Positions 33,238-64,000 of a stretch of DNA of 64,000 bases are shown piece by piece. Below the pieces are notes generated by a model. It had not been told where the DNA came from. It ran no database searches and worked only from the letters and a program-made list of their open reading frames with translations. Both the position numbers and the translations under genes were made by a program. The stretch is from the IMG/VR virus record IMGVR_UViG_2711768037_000005, positions 1 to 64,000 of that record, one strand, 5' to 3'. Source of the DNA: a virus. Lineage: Duplodnaviria; Heunggongvirae; Uroviricota; Caudoviricetes. Within the stretch, counting starts at the first letter, position 1. Each line of letters begins with the position of its first letter.

Positions 33238-33770
33238 ACCGCTGACAGCATACACAATCAACTGCCGCTGATAGCATATCGAGAGTCTATCTCACCGCTC
33301 ACAGCATACTTTACTCGATTTTTTACCGCTGACAGCATACTTAAGACATTGCATGAATAATGTGTACCGGTATGGGTATAACCAGAACAAAATTACCGCT
33401 GGCAGCATACGAAGGTCTGACATATGCCATTAATTACCGCTGATAGCATATCCAAACAAAAATTCCTCAATAAAACACCGCTGACAGCATACGTTCTATC
33501 AGGGAGCAGCAGGCAATAAATGCCTTTCACTACAAGCAATCAGCGCAATAGCAATAGAATGTTAGTGAGCGCAAACCTATATGGAATGCACTCTTCGAGG
33601 TTAGTAACCACTGGGGAGGTATGACAGAGCATTGAGTGGTGATAGATGATTTACCGCTCACAGCATACGTTCATCTCACTATACCGCTGGTAGCATATCT
33701 TTAACCGTTCACAGCATACATTTCAGAAAAATAGCCGCTGATAGCATACATTTCACCGCTGACAGCATAT
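33238..33770. repeat. iteron array downstream of rep: 12 copies of a 16-bp repeat ACCGCTGACAGCATAC (variants) in two clusters
   Basis: Copies start at 33238, 33264, 33294, 33325, 33395, 33436, 33477, 33653, 33683, 33704, 33734, 33755; irregular spacing; last copy overlaps the rep stop codon. Confidence 0.7.
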
Positions 33771-34864
33771 CAAAGCAGTTTGAGACTATTGGAAAGGATC
33801 TCAATCATCTTGATATTTTCAGGCGTCAAATTCTGCGAAAGTTCAGTTATCTTGTTGATAATGTTCTGTTTAGCATCAATTTCCCCGGCTTTCTCATCTG
33901 GTTTTTTGGGTTCGATGTCTTCAGGTTTTGGCGGTGCGACTTTAAGTTTTGGATTACGGCTGTGAATCTGGATATAGATCGACCGCCCTCGCTTAATCTC
34001 GCTGTATTCGAGATAGCCCAAATCTTGGAGAGCTTTTAAGCCGTTACGTATAGTCTGATTCTGCGAGCTTACATTCCTGCTACTCAAATTGAGTCGCGCA
34101 CGCAATCGAGCAAGCGATACCGGCGCAGGCTTGGTTGGAAGACTTTCGATGAAGGTGTACAGAGCCTGTGCTGTTTCTTTGCGTGGTAGCTTATTGATAA
34201 CCTTTAACTGCAAAAGAACCTTATGGTCAAAGCGATATAGTTCGGCCAGCTTCGGTTCTGCATAGAACACCACCGTATCTTTCTGCTCGTTGTAGTCCAC
34301 GCTATTGATGAGGTGCACCATCAGAAGCGAGATCTTGTTAGAGCCGTCGACGTTCTTTTCTTCATACGTTCTCTGGAAAGACAGAGTTGTACGCATGATC
34401 TTCAAAAGACTGTTTGTAAGCCGGTCGCGGAGTGTTTTGCGGATCTGTGACGATGGATAGCCACAAAACTTCGCAAATTTCGTGATGCTTAACTCGACAC
34501 GACCATTAGGTTCGCCGTATTCTGCCAGCGAACGCACAACGCCCACCCACGTTTTGAAATCATGATCCATGTCCAGGCGAGGACCGGTTATCTTGATATC
34601 GGAATAGCCTTCAGAACGGGCTACTTCGAGCTGGACAAGCTCCTTTGAAGCATCGATCTCATTTGGCTTGTTACGTTTACTGTATTTTGTTCCCTTAAGC
34701 GTGGGGACGAACAACCCCAGTCGCATCAACGCAATTGGTTGGACTGTATTGTTGCTATTAGGGACAAGTTCCCCTGTGTACAATTCAAGGGAACCTTCTT
34801 CAAAGTTGTCGATGTTATCTTCTACTTCTTTGTTATTTTTACCTTTTTTATTTTTTGTGGACAT
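33770..34864 (-). CDS. iteron-binding replication initiator (Rep), putative
   Basis: Only large minus-strand gene; flanked on both sides by iteron arrays; start taken at Met of MSTKNKKGK because the longer ORF-track N-terminus runs into the upstream iterons. Confidence 0.65.
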   Translation of the reverse strand: MSTKNKKGKNNKEVEDNIDNFEEGSLELYTGELVPNSNNTVQPIALMRLGLFVPTLKGTKYSKRNKPNEIDASKELVQLEVARSEGYSDIKITGPRLDMDHDFKTWVGVVRSLAEYGEPNGRVELSITKFAKFCGYPSSQIRKTLRDRLTNSLLKIMRTTLSFQRTYEEKNVDGSNKISLLMVHLINSVDYNEQKDTVVFYAEPKLAELYRFDHKVLLQLKVINKLPRKETAQALYTFIESLPTKPAPVSLARLRARLNLSSRNVSSQNQTIRNGLKALQDLGYLEYSEIKRGRSIYIQIHSRNPKLKVAPPKPEDIEPKKPDEKAGEIDAKQNIINKITELSQNLTPENIKMIEILSNSLKLL

Positions 34865-34884
34865 GTGGACACCTTTGTCATTCA

Positions 34885-34986
34885 ACCGCTGACAGCATAC
34901 TTGATTTGCCGCTGACAGAATACCAAAAACAGTTGGCAGCATACGGTGAACCGCTGACAGACTATCAATTACCGCTGACAGCATAC
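34885..34986. repeat. iteron array upstream of rep (about 5 copies, one degenerate)
   Basis: ACCGCTGACAGCATAC at 34885 and 34971; variants at 34908, 34931 and 34950. Confidence 0.65.
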
Positions 34987-58635: not shown

Positions 58636-59277
58636 ATGTCTAGTATTTCCGAAGCACATATGTTCGCCGCTGGCGCTCATGGTGGCGTTGGTCAGAAAAG
58701 AAAATATACCGGCGAAGACTACATCAACCACCCGGTTGCTGTCCGAGATATTGTTGCATTGCATGACGGAACCGTGGAGATGCAGATCGCGGCGCTTCTG
58801 CATGATGTGGTCGAAGACACCAATGTAACCATAGAGATGGTTCGTGATCACTTCGGTGAGCGCGTAGCTGAAATGGTTCAGGCTCTGACCAACATTGCAA
58901 GGTCAGAAGACGGCAATCGAATACAGCGTTTCATCATCAATGTCCGGGAGCTGGAGCAAAATCTCGACATGCAGACGCGCATGATCAAGCTGGCTGACCT
59001 GCTCGACAATACCTCTTCTATTGTGAGTCGCGATCCTGAGTTTTCAGCTATCTACCTTGCAGAGAAAGAGCTGATGCTGGACGTACTTTTTAACGGGAAG
59101 GAGATTGGTGCCAACGCTGATGTTGTCGAGTACATGGAGAGGATAGGTATAGAACACCCGTTGTTATTAAGCGCAAAGGCGAAAGTCACTGAAGGTATTG
59201 CGCTTCTGAAACCGGTACACATCAAACGTTATGAAAAACACAAATCGCTGATCTGGAGCGCGTGGGAGGCTGCATGA
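58636..59277 (+). CDS. HD-domain phosphohydrolase of SpoT/Rel hydrolase type (small alarmone hydrolase), putative
   Basis: GQKRKYTGEDYINHPVAV ... AALLHDVVEDT ... IKLADLLDN aligns with the (p)ppGpp hydrolase HD domain of SpoT. Confidence 0.7.
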   Translation: MSSISEAHMFAAGAHGGVGQKRKYTGEDYINHPVAVRDIVALHDGTVEMQIAALLHDVVEDTNVTIEMVRDHFGERVAEMVQALTNIARSEDGNRIQRFIINVRELEQNLDMQTRMIKLADLLDNTSSIVSRDPEFSAIYLAEKELMLDVLFNGKEIGANADVVEYMERIGIEHPLLLSAKAKVTEGIALLKPVHIKRYEKHKSLIWSAWEAA

Positions 59278-59816
59278 AGGTAGAAAAAATAGATGTTCTT
59301 TCCTTTGTGTTGACAGAGCTGGAGCGTCTCGATCCGGTTCGAGTGATGATTGAAAACTACGAACCTGGTAAGGGAAGAATCACCATCACCTGCTACGGAA
59401 AAGCCTGGACAGCGGCTTGGTTTGCTATGGGCGGTGATGATGTGCAGACGTTCATTAAGCGAGTTAGCAACGACTATCTAATCGACAATTTCGACCCTCA
59501 ACTGCTAAGCACGGTCGACGATGACAACGATGCAAATCTGCTTTTCGTGAAGTCAGAAATCATAAAGTTACGAAGAGAGAGAGAAATCGACGCCGTACAG
59601 GCTCGCGAAATGTGGGACGAGGCGGAAAACGCTGATGACGTAAAAGAAAGCTGCTGTTGTTTCGGCGTCGGTAACAAACTGCTGAATCTCTTTGGTGATG
59701 ATCCGTGGTATGCCGACTGGCCAACTGTACCAAACCCGAAATACCAGTATCTGGAACGCATTGTGAACGCGGTACGTGAAGGGCTGAAAGAGTTAGACAA
59801 GTTAGAGGCATCGTAA
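59262..59816 (+). CDS. hypothetical protein
   Basis: ORF track. Confidence 0.4.
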   Translation: MGGCMKVEKIDVLSFVLTELERLDPVRVMIENYEPGKGRITITCYGKAWTAAWFAMGGDDVQTFIKRVSNDYLIDNFDPQLLSTVDDDNDANLLFVKSEIIKLRREREIDAVQAREMWDEAENADDVKESCCCFGVGNKLLNLFGDDPWYADWPTVPNPKYQYLERIVNAVREGLKELDKLEAS

Positions 59817-60352
59817 TGAGAGAGAAAATCAAGAACCCGGTCGTCGTATTGTATAAACGGGAAACCAGCGATTCTTATGCGGTATCCATCACTGATGGAA
59901 GCCAGAACATGCACGATGGTCTGCTAATGGCCTCCGTATCTCCTGATGATTCGGACTACCCTTTCGCCACTTTCGCTATGGTTGGTTACTACATGGCTGC
60001 CGAAATTGAGAAGTTGCGGGCGCAGAGAGACGCATTAGCGGCGGAGAATGTGGCATTGCGATCTAAGGCTGCGGAACTGGCACATGAAGCGTCAAAAATT
60101 TACTCGGCATATAACGCCACTATCACAGAGCCTGACGGGGATTTTATGGACATGCAGACATTGCATGAAATGCAGTGCATAGAAACCCCAGCCACCGATG
60201 CTTTCCTGGCTGAAATTGAACGCAAAGCAATCCGCAAGTTCATTAACAGCATTGAACACATCCTGCGTGACAAGCTGTCACCGTATGACACCGAAGAGAT
60301 GCTTGAGGCTATGCGTATTTTTCTGGAAGAACAGGGAGGTGAGCAAAAATGA
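59816..60352 (+). CDS. hypothetical protein
   Basis: ORF track. Confidence 0.4.
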   Translation: MREKIKNPVVVLYKRETSDSYAVSITDGSQNMHDGLLMASVSPDDSDYPFATFAMVGYYMAAEIEKLRAQRDALAAENVALRSKAAELAHEASKIYSAYNATITEPDGDFMDMQTLHEMQCIETPATDAFLAEIERKAIRKFINSIEHILRDKLSPYDTEEMLEAMRIFLEEQGGEQK

Positions 60353-60663
60353 CAATCACAAAACAACGGGTAGAAAAAATCATATATCGCCATGAAATGG
60401 GACTGAACAGCGATGTCACTGCCGAAGAGGTTTATGACCTAGCTGTACTGGCGCTGAATTTATCAAATATCGCAAACCTGAAGCGATACGAGCTTGATAT
60501 GGATGGTTGCGACTCGTGCGGTCAGGATTGTGGCGCTGACATGACTGAAGATCCTGATGGTGATTATGTCCTGTTTGATGACGTGGTTAAGTTGTTTGAA
60601 TTTGATACAACCACTCAAAAGTTAGAAAGCCCAGCAAAGGAGTCATCCAGTGAGCAAGATTGA
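60349..60663 (+). CDS. hypothetical protein
   Basis: ORF track. Confidence 0.35.
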   Translation: MTITKQRVEKIIYRHEMGLNSDVTAEEVYDLAVLALNLSNIANLKRYELDMDGCDSCGQDCGADMTEDPDGDYVLFDDVVKLFEFDTTTQKLESPAKESSSEQD

Positions 60664-61165
60664 CTATCAGGCACTGCGTGAGGCGGCAGAGCGTGCAATT
60701 CCGGCAATGGAACGCCTGTTAATGTTGCCAGTTGATGATGAGCTGATAAGCGAACAGGAACTTAAAGATAGCGGTGTTGATATTGATGCGCTCAACGCCT
60801 TCAAATTTCTGGCCGGACCAGAAACCGTGCTGGCGCTACTGGATGAGAGCAACGCATTAGAGGAAACGCGTATCAACGATGTTTGTCGTATTGCAGAACT
60901 AACAAAACAACTGGAGTTGGCAAAATCAAAACTCAACGAGCAGCGTGAGTATTACGAGGGCGTTATCTCGGATGGAAGTAAGCGTATTGCTGAACTGGAA
61001 GCGCGGGAAGTTCAATTACCGACTCGCTACGACCTTCGATATGGACACCCGATAAATGCAGATGAGCGACATGTCATGATACCTAAAGAAAATGGCAGTT
61101 GGCTTTACCTGATTGACCTAGAACACGCATTACGCGTCGCTGGCATTCGCATCAAAGGAGAGTGA
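60650..61165 (+). CDS. hypothetical protein
   Basis: ORF track. Confidence 0.4.
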
Positions 61166-61166
61166 G

Positions 61167-61490
61167 ATGGCCACATCGCATTATGCAATCACCCAGGAAA
61201 AAGTATTTCGCTTGCTCGAACGTCTGGAGGCGCTCGCCACGGAGGAAGATATATCCCCGGAGATGCTGGTTGAGTGCAGCCGTGTGATATTGCGTCACAA
61301 GAACGACATCGCGCGGCTGACATCTGGCGCACCATCCGTATCAGCCAGTCCAACGCTTTATTGCAGCTTCTGCAACAAATCCCAGCACACCGTTAAAAAG
61401 TTAATTGCCGGGGACAACGTTTTCATCTGCAACGAGTGCGTGAAAGATTGCAACAACATTATCCAGGAAGATCAAAGGGAATCAGCATGA
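61167..61490 (+). CDS. small protein with C-terminal ClpX-type zinc-binding domain
   Basis: [39 protein letters not shown] is nearly colinear with the E. coli ClpX N-terminal zinc-binding domain; no AAA+ module follows. Confidence 0.6.
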
Positions 61491-62041
61491 AATTTTCCAA
61501 ATTTTCTGAGTTGGTGAATCGTATTTTGTCCAACAACCACAGCCATCGTCGCGATATGGATGTAACGATCGTTGTTCATTCGCCTGGTCGCATCGGTTCA
61601 ACACCATCAGTTGAGGTTCAGTCAATTCAGGCGGGTTTTGATTGGGATGCCGGGCAAGTGATGATTTTTCCAGCACAGCCACTGACCACGCTAACACCAG
61701 AGCAGGTTGCTGATATCACTGATAGTGTGCGCAAAGGTCAGTCTTGGCACGCGTATCAGGAATACAAGAAGCATAAAGAGCAGTTGGAAAAATTGTCGAT
61801 GGAGTTGGAAGCCGCTAAACAGCGGGAAAAAGATCTGTTTATGGAAAATGTTCGACTTAAGTCAGGTATAGCCGGTCTGATACACCTCGGTATTCGATAT
61901 GCGGATGTTGAGGTCATGAAAATTGCTGGAGATGCCCAGCTTTCTACTCCATGCACTGACAGCATCATAAACAGCATTGCAGCAGGCATTTTCACCAAAG
62001 AGGGGGGTCAGCACGATGAGAACACTAGAAGTTCGCGCTGA
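61488..62041 (+). CDS. hypothetical protein
   Basis: In-frame ATG within ORF-track 61436..62041; ATGA overlap with upstream stop. Confidence 0.35.
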
Positions 62042-62201
62042 AGACGTAATCCCTGGTGATGTGCTCATAACATCTAAAGGTCAACAATGTGCGGTTAAAT
62101 CTTTTTGGATGGAAGATGACAAAGTGACTCTGTTCGGTACGGATGGTTCCGAAACTGATTATGACTACGACGAATTGCTTGTTGTTGAGAGAGCTGCCTA
62201 A
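62016..62201 (+). CDS. hypothetical small protein
   Basis: Internal ATG of ORF-track 61977..62201. Confidence 0.3.
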   Translation: MRTLEVRAEDVIPGDVLITSKGQQCAVKSFWMEDDKVTLFGTDGSETDYDYDELLVVERAA

Positions 62202-62623
62202 TGACCACCTTAACCAAAGAACAGTTAATCTCCCATGCACGCGAAAGCGTTAGTTATCTGGAAGACTTGAAAGGACGTGTTAGTAAAGAAGGTGCGGACT
62301 GCAAAGTTGTTATTGAGATGGTTGAACGAGATCTAAAACTGGCACGAATTGCACTGGCCTCGCTGGAAGCAAAACCAATAGGTGCTTTCCACATTGCAGA
62401 ACAGCAGGTCGATGGCACAAGTGACTACATCAAGGATGGAGAATGGCCTATTGATAATGGAATTATTGAGGTCTACGCCGCTCCACCCGTTCCAGTAGTA
62501 CCGGAAGAAAAACCAATGCCTAATCCTCTTAGCATGTACGCGGTTGATGCTGTTGCCGCTATTGCAGAGGTGAGAGGCTGGAACGCCTGCCGTGCCGCTA
62601 TGCTTCAGGGAAAAGGAGAGTGA
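62201..62623 (+). CDS. hypothetical protein
   Basis: ORF track. Confidence 0.4.
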   Translation: MTTLTKEQLISHARESVSYLEDLKGRVSKEGADCKVVIEMVERDLKLARIALASLEAKPIGAFHIAEQQVDGTSDYIKDGEWPIDNGIIEVYAAPPVPVVPEEKPMPNPLSMYAVDAVAAIAEVRGWNACRAAMLQGKGE

Positions 62624-62624
62624 T

Positions 62625-63200
62625 ATGACCACTATAACCGATAAGAAACAGTATCCAGGCGAGCAATATCTTAATGAGCTGATCACCAACATAGAGTTTG
62701 CTGCAAGGGCACCAGTTGAAGTCGTGAGAGCAATGGCAGCAGAGCTACAGAAGCGGCGCGAAGCTGATAGTGCCGAACCTGCAAGTAATCATGAAGAGTT
62801 GCCGCTTGATTATCTCCAAGGTCAAAAAGATGGTCTTGAATGGGCTGCGCAGCTTGCAGAAGCAAATCACCCACAAACTGGCGACTGGCTTTACGATGAC
62901 CCGCTGGAGCTGGCTAAAGCTATCAGAAAAGGTCCTGACATGCCCGAATTCGATGGACCAACTCCGGTAACTCCGGATGGCTGGATAAGCTGTAGTGAGC
63001 GAATGCCGAAAAAGAATCAGAACGTACTTATTTCGGTGAATTTCGATAGTGATCTGGTTGAGCCGCTAATATGCTCCGCACGCTATACCGGAAGCACCTT
63101 TCGGCGAGGAGAAGCAACGATTAAGCCGGGCAATGGTGTTGAGCAGGTAACACACTGGATGCCGCTACCAGAACCGCCGCAGGAGTCGAAGAGTGAATAA
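62625..63200 (+). CDS. hypothetical protein with C-terminal W-x-P-L-P-E-P-P motif
   Basis: In-frame ATG 62625 after GGAGAG; C-terminal motif HWMPLPEPP. Confidence 0.35.
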   Translation: MTTITDKKQYPGEQYLNELITNIEFAARAPVEVVRAMAAELQKRREADSAEPASNHEELPLDYLQGQKDGLEWAAQLAEANHPQTGDWLYDDPLELAKAIRKGPDMPEFDGPTPVTPDGWISCSERMPKKNQNVLISVNFDSDLVEPLICSARYTGSTFRRGEATIKPGNGVEQVTHWMPLPEPPQESKSE

Positions 63201-63414
63201 AGCAGAGTTATTTCAGAAAATATCGGCTCTCGCGACTGAATGCCACGCTATAGCATCTGAGCTTGATGTTGGCGATGAACGAACCGAGATGTTCGAAATA
63301 TACAGTGTGCTGCGCAATCTCTGTCGGCGTGGCTACGCCACTCAGGTAGGGCGAATAACTAACCCACTGCTCACCTCCTTTGGTGATGATGACTCGAATG
63401 AGGATGAAGAATGA
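63193..63414 (+). CDS. hypothetical protein
   Basis: ORF track. Confidence 0.3.
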   Translation: MNKAELFQKISALATECHAIASELDVGDERTEMFEIYSVLRNLCRRGYATQVGRITNPLLTSFGDDDSNEDEE

Positions 63415-64000
63415 TGCATAAATCATTAGCCGGTGAGCTTCAGGAGGAAGTAGATAATACTACCGTTCTATTGGACGATATTATAAGCATTCTTGCGCTT
63501 CTTGAGGCTGGCGATTGGTCAGAACATTGCACTAAAACAGAGCTAGGCGGTCGGCTTGAAAGAGAGATTACACGACTTATTGATGATGCGCAGGAAGCTA
63601 CAGTCACTAGTTATGAGTTAATCGCTGAAGCCTGGCGTTTGATGGATGGACAAGATCCTAAAACCAGCGATTGGCATAGCAAGGCTTCGAAGTATTTAAA
63701 TTCCGATAGGGTAGAAAAAGTTGATGATGTGAAACCGAAGCCAGTAGACCACGGTTTCCGCGATAACTGCGAATGCTCTAGTTGCCAGACCACGGCCCGT
63801 ATTTGTTCCGAATTGACAGATAAGTCCAGCCTAATCTACGAAGTTAATGTAGGCGGTAATACATGGGGCGAATGCACAAGAGCTGCATACGTAAGAGCAA
63901 AAGACAAGGGTGAATTAACCAGAGTTGTTACCCATCACCCAAATAATGAGCTTAAAGATCAACAGATTAGAGAACTGGTGAACGAGTTGCGGGATATTGC
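63411..64000 (+). CDS. hypothetical protein, 3'-truncated at window edge
   Basis: ATG 63411 overlapping upstream stop; reading frame open to the end of the window by manual translation. Confidence 0.3.
   Translation, partial: MMHKSLAGELQEEVDNTTVLLDDIISILALLEAGDWSEHCTKTELGGRLEREITRLIDDAQEATVTSYELIAEAWRLMDGQDPKTSDWHSKASKYLNSDRVEKVDDVKPKPVDHGFRDNCECSSCQTTARICSELTDKSSLIYEVNVGGNTWGECTRAAYVRAKDKGELTRVVTHHPNNELKDQQIRELVNELRDI

Follow-up and report, generated by a model that had tools for sequence, protein, structure and literature searches.

A phage-plasmid protein joining a helical hairpin to a ClpX-type zinc-binding domain, and its possible role as a decoy of the ClpX N-domain

The window analysed here is a stretch of 64,000 nucleotides (positions 1 to 64,000 of the IMG/VR virus record IMGVR_UViG_2711768037_000005, Caudoviricetes) which, as judged from the comparisons given below, is part of an SSU5-like phage-plasmid and not of a conventional phage. 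At 61167..61490 it encodes a protein of 107 amino acids (aa), in which an amphipathic helical hairpin and a flexible linker precede a zinc-binding domain (ZBD) of the type carried by ClpX. With a confidence that stops a little short of even, we propose that this protein acts in trans as a decoy of the ClpX N-domain, which would titrate the adaptors and substrates that dock on the ZBD and selectively block their degradation.

Domain identity and architecture

The gene and its parts are all located on the plus strand.

61167..61490, plus strand: coding sequence of the hairpin and ClpX-type ZBD protein, 107 aa, ATG start and TGA stop, 100% identical to WP_053265194.1, PHROG 6797
61155..61160, plus strand: Shine-Dalgarno sequence AAGGAG, 6 nt 5' of the ATG, within the '...GIRIKGE*' tail of the upstream Ead/Ea22-like open reading frame (ORF), read directly from the sequence
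61188..61322, plus strand: N-terminal amphipathic helical hairpin, aa 8-52, with helices 10-26 and 31-52 in the AlphaFold2 (AF2) model; family-specific and under purifying selection
61323..61355, plus strand: flexible linker, aa 53-63, with a predicted local distance difference test score (pLDDT) <50 at residues 53-59 and a ratio of nonsynonymous to synonymous substitution rates (dN/dS) of 0.8-1.3 (neutral)
61356..61472, plus strand: ClpX-type C4 ZBD, aa 64-102, PF06689 with 64.2 bits, PDB 1OVX/2DS5
61362-61364, 61371-61373, 61428-61430 and 61437-61439, plus strand: zinc ligands Cys66, Cys69, Cys88 and Cys91, respectively, predicted from the ZBD match
61487..61490, plus strand: ATGA, in which the stop codon of the 107-aa ORF overlaps the start of the next ORF, from sequence reading

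The C-terminal sequence of the protein ([39 protein letters not shown]) is the same as that quoted in the first-pass annotation, where it had been taken for a ClpX ZBD, to be checked by alignment with ClpX zinc-binding profiles, and where no AAA+ module was seen to follow it. Both statements were borne out. Residues 65-101 matched Pfam PF06689 (zf-C4_ClpX) over nearly the whole model (positions 2-39 of 39) with E = 9.9e-18 and 64.2 bits at a gathering cut-off of 27, and the best sequence matches in the PDB were the structures of the E. coli ClpX ZBD (1OVX and 2DS5-2DS8, E = 2.4e-15). Identity to the E. coli ClpX ZBD extends to 27 of the 39 core residues (69%), and the CxxC...CxxC ligands Cys66, 69, 88 and 91 are invariant in the 48 distinct sequences of the family. 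An AF2 model built from 23 family sequences gave a pLDDT of 75-82 across the ZBD; this part of the predicted model was matched by Foldseek to 2DS5/2DS6/2DS8 with a probability of 1.00, an rmsd of 2.5 Å and 68% identity, and it adopts the treble-clef fold, with beta-hairpins and a C-terminal helix. The predicted template modelling score (pTM) of the model was 0.35, which is too low for reading inter-domain geometry. As for the AAA+ module, the protein stops at residue 107 and has no AAA match in Pfam, the ClpX equivalogs of NCBIfam scored 47 and 43 bits in comparison with cut-offs of 359 and 371, and the downstream ORF starting at 61487 corresponds to PHROG 6026/368, which is not an AAA+ family. 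On these scores the 107-aa protein is not a ClpX. Its description as a free-standing copy of the ZBD was correct in that the AAA+ motor is missing, but the additional helical domain in the first 60 residues had been overlooked.

The protein has already been catalogued, both in RefSeq as WP_053265194.1 ('ClpX C4-type zinc finger protein') and as PHROG 6797 (function unknown), to which it matched in full length (E = 1.6e-54, residues 1-106 on profile positions 1-106 of 107). Many database copies, among them P0002, P0004, P0007, P0011, P88 and D6, carry the label 'carboxylate--amine ligase'. This name was rejected since an ATP-grasp/GCS2-type domain needs several hundred residues and the only Pfam match in the 107 aa is zf-C4_ClpX; on these sequence grounds it is a propagated misannotation.

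The N-terminal hairpin was found together with the ZBD throughout. A search of public viral contigs with the N-terminal part only yielded 76 loci, and the hairpin was followed by the ZBD in 75 of them, the exception ending at the edge of its contig. A phmmer search with residues 1-62 against 1.84 billion representative proteins returned nine hits, two of which were repeat artefacts; since all the genuine ones consist of hairpin and ZBD, the N-domain exists in this architecture alone. No structural match for the hairpin was obtained with Foldseek, and no match was found when the N-domain alignment was scanned against species-representative genomes. From its heptad pattern the hairpin appears too small for a stable core of its own, and most likely it either forms dimers, which would make the decoy multivalent and increase its avidity for dimeric adaptors, or recognises a single specific client. 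Two candidate short motifs were considered. A self-ligand in the N-domain resembling the ClpX-binding (XB) peptide, 'RVILRHK', was compared with the 'LRVVK' of SspB and with the published LKxh consensus and mismatches at the hydrophobic position, so that it is not supported, and a C-terminal ClpX degron was rejected as the tails (QRESA, KEGSA, DLRK, KGKNA and EEKTHE) are not conserved.

Selection, origin and ligand pocket

The dN/dS values were obtained as Nei-Gojobori estimates from the 48 distinct coding sequences. Between subfamily A, found on phage-plasmids, and subfamily B, found in P2-like prophages, they were 0.18 for the hairpin, 1.27 for the linker and 0.29 for the ZBD; the corresponding values were 0.26, 0.88 and 0.62 within A, and 0.24, 0.82 and 0.29 within B. 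Both folded parts are kept by purifying selection and the linker is free to vary.

Purifying selection on both the hairpin and the ZBD excludes a decaying fragment of clpX, and the explanation that the gene is a functionless remnant of a captured clpX is therefore effectively refuted and carries a negligible probability. In its favour, the gene is an accessory one, as some member of the family is present in only 195 of 5,426 complete E. coli genomes (~3.6%), with a roughly equal split between plasmid and chromosome, and two IMG/VR copies (L027 and L036) are frameshifted into the downstream gene. However, the ZBD is C-terminal behind a dedicated N-domain, unlike in a truncated clpX, the Shine-Dalgarno sequence and the coupling to the next ORF are intact, all three diverged subfamilies have kept the four cysteines, and there is no nucleotide similarity to the clpX of the host. 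In the two frameshifted copies the reading frame changes after the second CxxC, so that the ZBD ORF runs on into the PHROG-6026 gene behind it and the products are 282 and 293 aa long; probably these alleles are inactivated or the contigs misassembled.

A recent capture from the clpX of the host was also rejected. Sensitive blastn searches of the 5,426 E. coli genomes with the 141-nt ZBD DNA gave matches in 195 genomes, all of them to small ZBD genes and none to clpX, and the ZBD of the window is about equally identical (~66%) to ClpX of alpha-proteobacteria, gamma-proteobacteria and Firmicutes, which together argue that the domain was not recently taken from E. coli. The ZBD of subfamily B is nearer to host ClpX (79%).

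The constraint on the hairpin means that it has a function of its own, and one explanation gives it the leading part. The protein could be a hijacking adaptor that joins ClpX, either as a ZBD-ZBD heterodimer or through an XB-tail bridge, while the hairpin recruits a protein of the host or of a rival phage for degradation by ClpXP or remodelling by ClpX. The hairpin is indeed both unique to the family and its most constrained part, as would be the case for a specific target-binding module, and in its succession of folded domain, flexible linker and docking element the protein is laid out like SspB, except for a swapped docking element. In ClpX itself the ZBD mediates dimerisation (PMC7226468), and among phages the T5 protein Gp00X induces proteolysis of RpoS by ClpXP (meeting report, PMC11806420). 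Asp94, which in the protein of the window replaces L42 of ClpX on the helix face near I46, may on the other hand weaken pairing with ClpX, and the AF2 monomer, with its low pTM, is uninformative on heterodimers. Furthermore, ZBDs pair within the ClpX hexamer where their local concentration is very high, which makes invasion by a free monomer unfavourable. A hijacking adaptor is for these reasons considered unlikely, though it deserves to be kept in mind.

The residues of the ligand pocket were taken from PMC8808172 and PMC7804408. ClpX no longer recognises the MqsA degron when it carries the substitution L12S, L13A/D or H23A, and the strongest chemical-shift perturbations are found at L13, K27, I29 and A30, in a site overlapping that of the SspB tail (PMC8808172). 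Residues F16 and I46 (F17 and I47 in Met1 numbering) form the walls of a hydrophobic side pocket, which coincides in part with the lambda-O site (PMC7804408). The corresponding residues of the protein encoded in the window, and their state in the 48 family sequences, are as follows.

ClpX L12, window T63: T in 47 of 48, differs from ClpX
ClpX L13, window L64: L, I or V in the 48
ClpX F17, window F68: invariant in the 48
ClpX H23, window H74: H in 20 and Y in 28 of 48
ClpX K27, window K78: K in 47 of 48
ClpX I29, window I80: invariant in the 48
ClpX A30, window A81: invariant in the 48
ClpX I47, window I98: I in 41 and V in 5 of 48

By this sequence comparison, seven of the eight experimentally mapped pocket residues of ClpX are retained in the protein, and the variable positions of the ZBD (75, 77, 83, 84, 89, 93, 94, 97, 100 and 101) all lie outside the mapped pocket set. 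The pocket thus appears largely intact, though not identical, and compatible with the binding of XB-type peptides. The replacement of L12 by Thr63 and of L42 by Asp94 implies that its ligand specificity may differ from that of ClpX.

The same differences would also suit a use of the domain that has nothing to do with ClpX, in which the treble-clef ribbon serves as a generic binder of proteins or nucleic acids, for example in a small regulator of early functions, replication or partition, and ClpXP is left unaffected. Besides the exchange of L12 for threonine and the L42D of the window allele, the variation of subfamily A on the exposed helix face, suggestive of partners that vary, speaks for such a use, and so does the position of the gene, which in all cases lies in a region of replication genes or early accessory genes (behind gpA in the P2-like elements, and in an ea22-type block in the phage-plasmids). 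What makes it improbable, at about the level of the hijacking adaptor, is that the ZBD is 69-79% identical to ClpX over the whole domain with a near-maximal Pfam score, far above the needs of the fold, and that the invariant residues are those of the ligand pocket. In addition, no DNA-binding motif and no match to a regulator family was found in Pfam, NCBIfam or PADLOC.

Proposed decoy function

The decoy function proposed above would start with expression of the gene from the early/accessory operon of the temperate phage-plasmid. The C-terminal ZBD would fold around one zinc ion and probably dimerise like the ZBD of ClpX, and it would offer the same hydrophobic peptide-binding pocket. In this form it could capture the XB-type tails of adaptors (SspB, RssB and UmuD) as well as ZBD-dependent substrates with lambda-O-like, MuA-like or MqsA-type degrons. 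Delivery of these clients to ClpXP would be blocked and degradation that does not depend on the ZBD, such as that of plain ssrA tags, would be unaffected, making the protein a selective and not a global inhibitor of ClpXP. The role of the hairpin, tethered flexibly to the ZBD, would be either to promote oligomerisation and raise avidity, or to confer specificity by binding a single client.

There is an in vitro precedent for such an activity in the free ZBD. The isolated ZBD of E. coli forms dimers, and at 5-20 µM in trans it inhibits the RssB-dependent degradation of sigma-S by 0.6 µM ClpXP (PMC7226468). Deletion of the ZBD from ClpX stops the degradation of sigma-S and lambda-O, not that of ssrA substrates (PMC7226468, PMC7804408). 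The functional idea of the first-pass annotation, in which the protein would compete for ClpX adaptors or substrates or dimerise with ClpX, is a reasonable one that agrees with all findings reported here and is now better grounded. The most economical reading is that the phage-plasmid gene encodes a natural counterpart of the purified-ZBD competitor.

Several observations weigh against a decoy. Inhibition by the ZBD in vitro took a molar excess of ~10-30-fold over ClpX (PMC7226468), and a decoy would therefore require high expression or extra avidity. In the pocket, Thr63 stands in place of L12, whose substitution L12S impaired binding of the MqsA degron in ClpX, and the window allele has Asp94 at the position of L42, beside I46 on the helix, where the other alleles have L, V or A; moreover, some of the pocket residues may be conserved for folding alone. 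The hairpin is more strongly constrained than the ZBD (0.18 compared with 0.29), and a plain decoy needs no such extra domain. Within the phage-plasmid subfamily the dN/dS of the ZBD is raised to 0.62, which is unexpected if its partners are invariant host adaptors only. Finally, the ZBD of the window appears no nearer to the ClpX of E. coli than to distant ClpX proteins and gives no sign of having been tuned to the host copy.

Genomic setting and related systems

The upstream ORF (60650..61165) is Ead/Ea22-like (Pfam Ead_Ea22, 81 bits) and its stop codon at 61163-61165 ends one base before the ATG of the ZBD gene. At the other end, the ATGA overlap implies translational coupling within a long same-strand operon. 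From the overlapping or abutting ORF ends and the Shine-Dalgarno sequence it is clear that the gene sits in a tightly packed operon, and a scan of 54000-64000 gave no promoter or terminator signals above background. The tail '...G(I)RIKGE*' is common to the ends of unrelated ORFs (window 61140-61169, L002:7440-7470 and L002:7930-7960), and its DNA includes the stop codon as well as the Shine-Dalgarno sequence and start codon (ATG) of the gene that follows. It looks like a conserved cassette junction, through which SSU5-like, P1-like, P2-like and lambdoid elements could exchange accessory genes in mosaic fashion. The downstream ORF (61487..62041, 184 aa) is identical over 173 aa to a 238-aa protein of plasmid pOkiPb01698_2 (L001:6321-7034), after which the frame shifts; the counterpart of the remainder of that protein is found in the window ORF 61977..62201. 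The frame shift within 61487..62201 stems either from an indel of 1 nt, in a pseudogene or through a sequencing error, or from fusion of the genes in pOkiPb01698_2. Read out of frame, the peptide 'QHDEN.RSSR' is also the C-terminus of the ZBD homologue P0002 and marks a cassette junction.

The first 25 kb of the window are 97% identical to Escherichia phage CMS-2020a, and identity to Salmonella phage SSU5 is 80% across the replication module. The window encodes a DnaB-like helicase, a DNA ligase, an integrase-family protein, CobT, a gp32-like single-stranded DNA-binding protein, a 5'-3' exonuclease and a RecA homologue, together with a Rep_3-type initiator, an SbcCD-like pair, ribonucleotide reductase and thymidylate synthase. 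Near-identical copies of the ZBD gene, 52 in the 5,426 complete E. coli genomes, were without exception located on plasmids of 90-110 kb, and chromosomal copies of this kind were absent. PLSDB contains the family on ~105 plasmids of Escherichia, Salmonella, Shigella and Klebsiella, and 119 of the 126 matching records were typed as non-mobilizable. The family was seen only in temperate enterobacterial elements, namely SSU5-like and P1-like phage-plasmids and P2/186-like prophages, and it falls into three subfamilies. Subfamily A comprises the phage-plasmids (SSU5-like and the P1-like D6) and has 'AGD/E' in the ZBD in place of the 'AGP' of ClpX. Subfamily B belongs to P2-like prophages of the P88/UTI89/CB9615 type and is 50% identical overall, with the ZBD 79% identical to that of E. 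coli ClpX. Subfamily C is represented by P0031, within a 186/P2-like prophage.

The phage-plasmid copies, both SSU5-like and in the P1-like D6, are surrounded by lambdoid cassettes of the 'ea' type (Ead/Ea22-like, DUF551 and EaA-like), which together form a mosaic block. Downstream in the same-strand block lies humD, encoding a UmuD' homologue, at a distance of 3.6 kb in the SSU5-like elements and 6.4 kb in D6. UmuD and UmuD' are among the proteins that use the ClpX N-domain (PMC8808172), which makes protection of HumD an attractive candidate role. The P2/186-like elements have no humD nearby, and the gene there follows the replication gene A, with or without ParM/ParR-like genes. A further candidate client of Clp chaperones is the replication initiator of the element.

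33770..34984, minus strand: Rep_3 (PF01051) iteron-type replication initiator, the only long minus-strand gene in that part of the window

Initiators of the Rep_3 class are remodelled or degraded by Clp ATPases in other plasmids. Candidate physiological targets are the HumD/UmuD' homologue, the Rep_3 initiator and antitoxins. A conserved partner gene was rejected, as the downstream neighbours vary between and within the subfamilies and none is consistently adjacent across them.

The position of subfamilies B and C bears on a variant of the decoy function in superinfection exclusion, in which the block of the N-domain would shield the host from phages that need ZBD-dependent ClpX. Transposable phages of the Mu type, which depend on ClpX to remodel their transpososome, would be chiefly concerned. 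Both subfamilies are found in the variable gpA-to-portal region of P2/186-like prophages, where P2 carries its exclusion genes tin and old. Furthermore, PMC8808172 counts MuA as one of the substrates making direct contact with the N-domain of ClpX. Against this, the PADLOC defence-system profiles matched neither the ZBD protein nor either of its neighbours, the P2-like copies immediately follow the early replication operon in the same orientation and are not independently expressed units of lysogenic conversion, and in the window the gene has no promoter of its own above background. Exclusion as the role of the protein is consequently regarded as quite improbable.

Some of the surrounding genes may be mentioned in their own right. 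Copies of the P88/UTI89 type nearly always have ParM and ParR-like genes in front of them, and these genes are missing from the P0031 lineage. In the P2-like prophages of UTI89 (L002:5480-7151) and CB9615 (L003:5479-7150), ParM and a 'partitioning/stability' protein are encoded directly upstream of the ZBD gene, and an actin-type partition pair lies upstream in nearly all such subfamily B loci of IMG/VR, which is odd for an integrating phage. At 58636-59277 (plus strand) the window encodes a 213-aa protein with an HD_4 domain (PF13328, 68 bits; PHROG 990), the fold of RelA/SpoT-type (p)ppGpp hydrolases, and this product may be a small alarmone hydrolase of the phage-plasmid. The 561-aa DUF4942 protein encoded at 55685-57370 (plus strand) matches methyltransferase profiles of PADLOC (mad2, Type II MTase; E = 6e-15 to 2e-10) with its C-terminal third and is probably an orphan or anti-restriction methyltransferase heading the accessory block. 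In pOkiPb01698_2 (L001:10381-12324, ~4-5 kb past the point corresponding to the end of the window) full-length homologues of apbC/mrp and metG are found beside humD, and likewise in PhiR41_1 (L081). These are both housekeeping genes, apbC/mrp for an iron-sulfur cluster carrier and metG for methionyl-tRNA synthetase.

ClpXP governs the stability of lambda-O-type initiators, the remodelling of the Mu transpososome, the turnover of antitoxins, the clearance of UmuD' and LexA fragments after SOS, and the level of RpoS. To our knowledge, all known selective control of ClpX runs through adaptors and anti-adaptors docking on the ZBD. A natural free ZBD, if confirmed, would be a new route by which a mobile element edits the degradome of its host, and a genetically encodable tool for separating ZBD-dependent from ZBD-independent functions of ClpXP in vivo. 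It is quite possible, though somewhat less likely than not, that the two-domain 'anti-ClpX-N-domain' protein is the first natural trans-acting mimic of the docking domain of an AAA+ protease, rewiring the selectivity of ClpXP and either shielding a protein of the element (HumD/UmuD', Rep or an antitoxin) or excluding ClpX-dependent phages such as Mu. With only 107 residues and standard ClpXP assays, this hypothesis is quickly testable. Full-text literature searches returned no study of the 107-aa protein or of any free-standing phage ZBD; new here are the two-domain architecture, the exclusivity of the N-domain, the pattern of selection, the restriction to phage-plasmids and P2-type elements, the residue-level comparison of the pocket and the identity of the SSU5-like element.

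Small phage ORFs with mostly a ClpX-type zinc finger also occur in PHROG 12435, in PHROG 5259 and at 81.3-81.7 kb of Caulobacter phage Cr30; in contrast to the family described here they have no N-terminal hairpin and belong to unrelated phages. In Cr30, a T4-like phage, the ClpX-ZBD-like stretch (L085:1335-1725; tblastn, 46% over 59 aa) spans the tiny ORFs gp169 and gp170, and a short gene for a free-standing ZBD may have been divided or overlooked in the annotation.

Phage regulators of host AAA+ proteases include T4 PinA and T7 Gp4.5 (Lon), lambda CIII (FtsH) and SPO1 Gp53 (ClpC). T5 Gp00X acts on ClpXP/RpoS (PMC11806420). Like the protein of the window, all of these are small early or accessory phage proteins that reprogram regulated proteolysis in the host; however, their sequences are unrelated to it and none of them copies a domain of the protease itself, whereas a domain mimic, that is a 'microprotein' or dominant-negative decoy, is what is proposed here. 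With SspB and with IraD, IraM and IraP the protein would share a modular layout of folded domain, flexible linker and ZBD-XB docking element, and the same docking interface of ClpX. SspB bears the XB peptide and the protein of the window the receptor (ZBD) side, with no sequence similarity between them, and the anti-adaptors IraD, IraM and IraP bind RssB and do not act via the ZBD.

The closest known system is the ZBD of E. coli ClpX itself, with which the protein shares the C4 treble-clef ribbon and C-terminal helix, 69% identity over 39 residues, the four cysteines and seven of eight pocket residues. The ZBD of ClpX, encoded by a chromosomal gene, is N-terminal on an AAA+ ring with its IGF loop, whereas that of the phage-plasmid gene is C-terminal, behind a hairpin and without a ring, and in the window allele L12, P31 and L42 are replaced by Thr, Asp and Asp. 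The recombinant isolated ZBD (PMC7226468, Fig. 1d) likewise lacks the motor, and its dimerisation and inhibition in trans are the activity proposed for the phage protein. It is, however, a laboratory construct (ClpX ~1-60), and the phage protein differs from it in having an extra conserved domain and a diverged surface.

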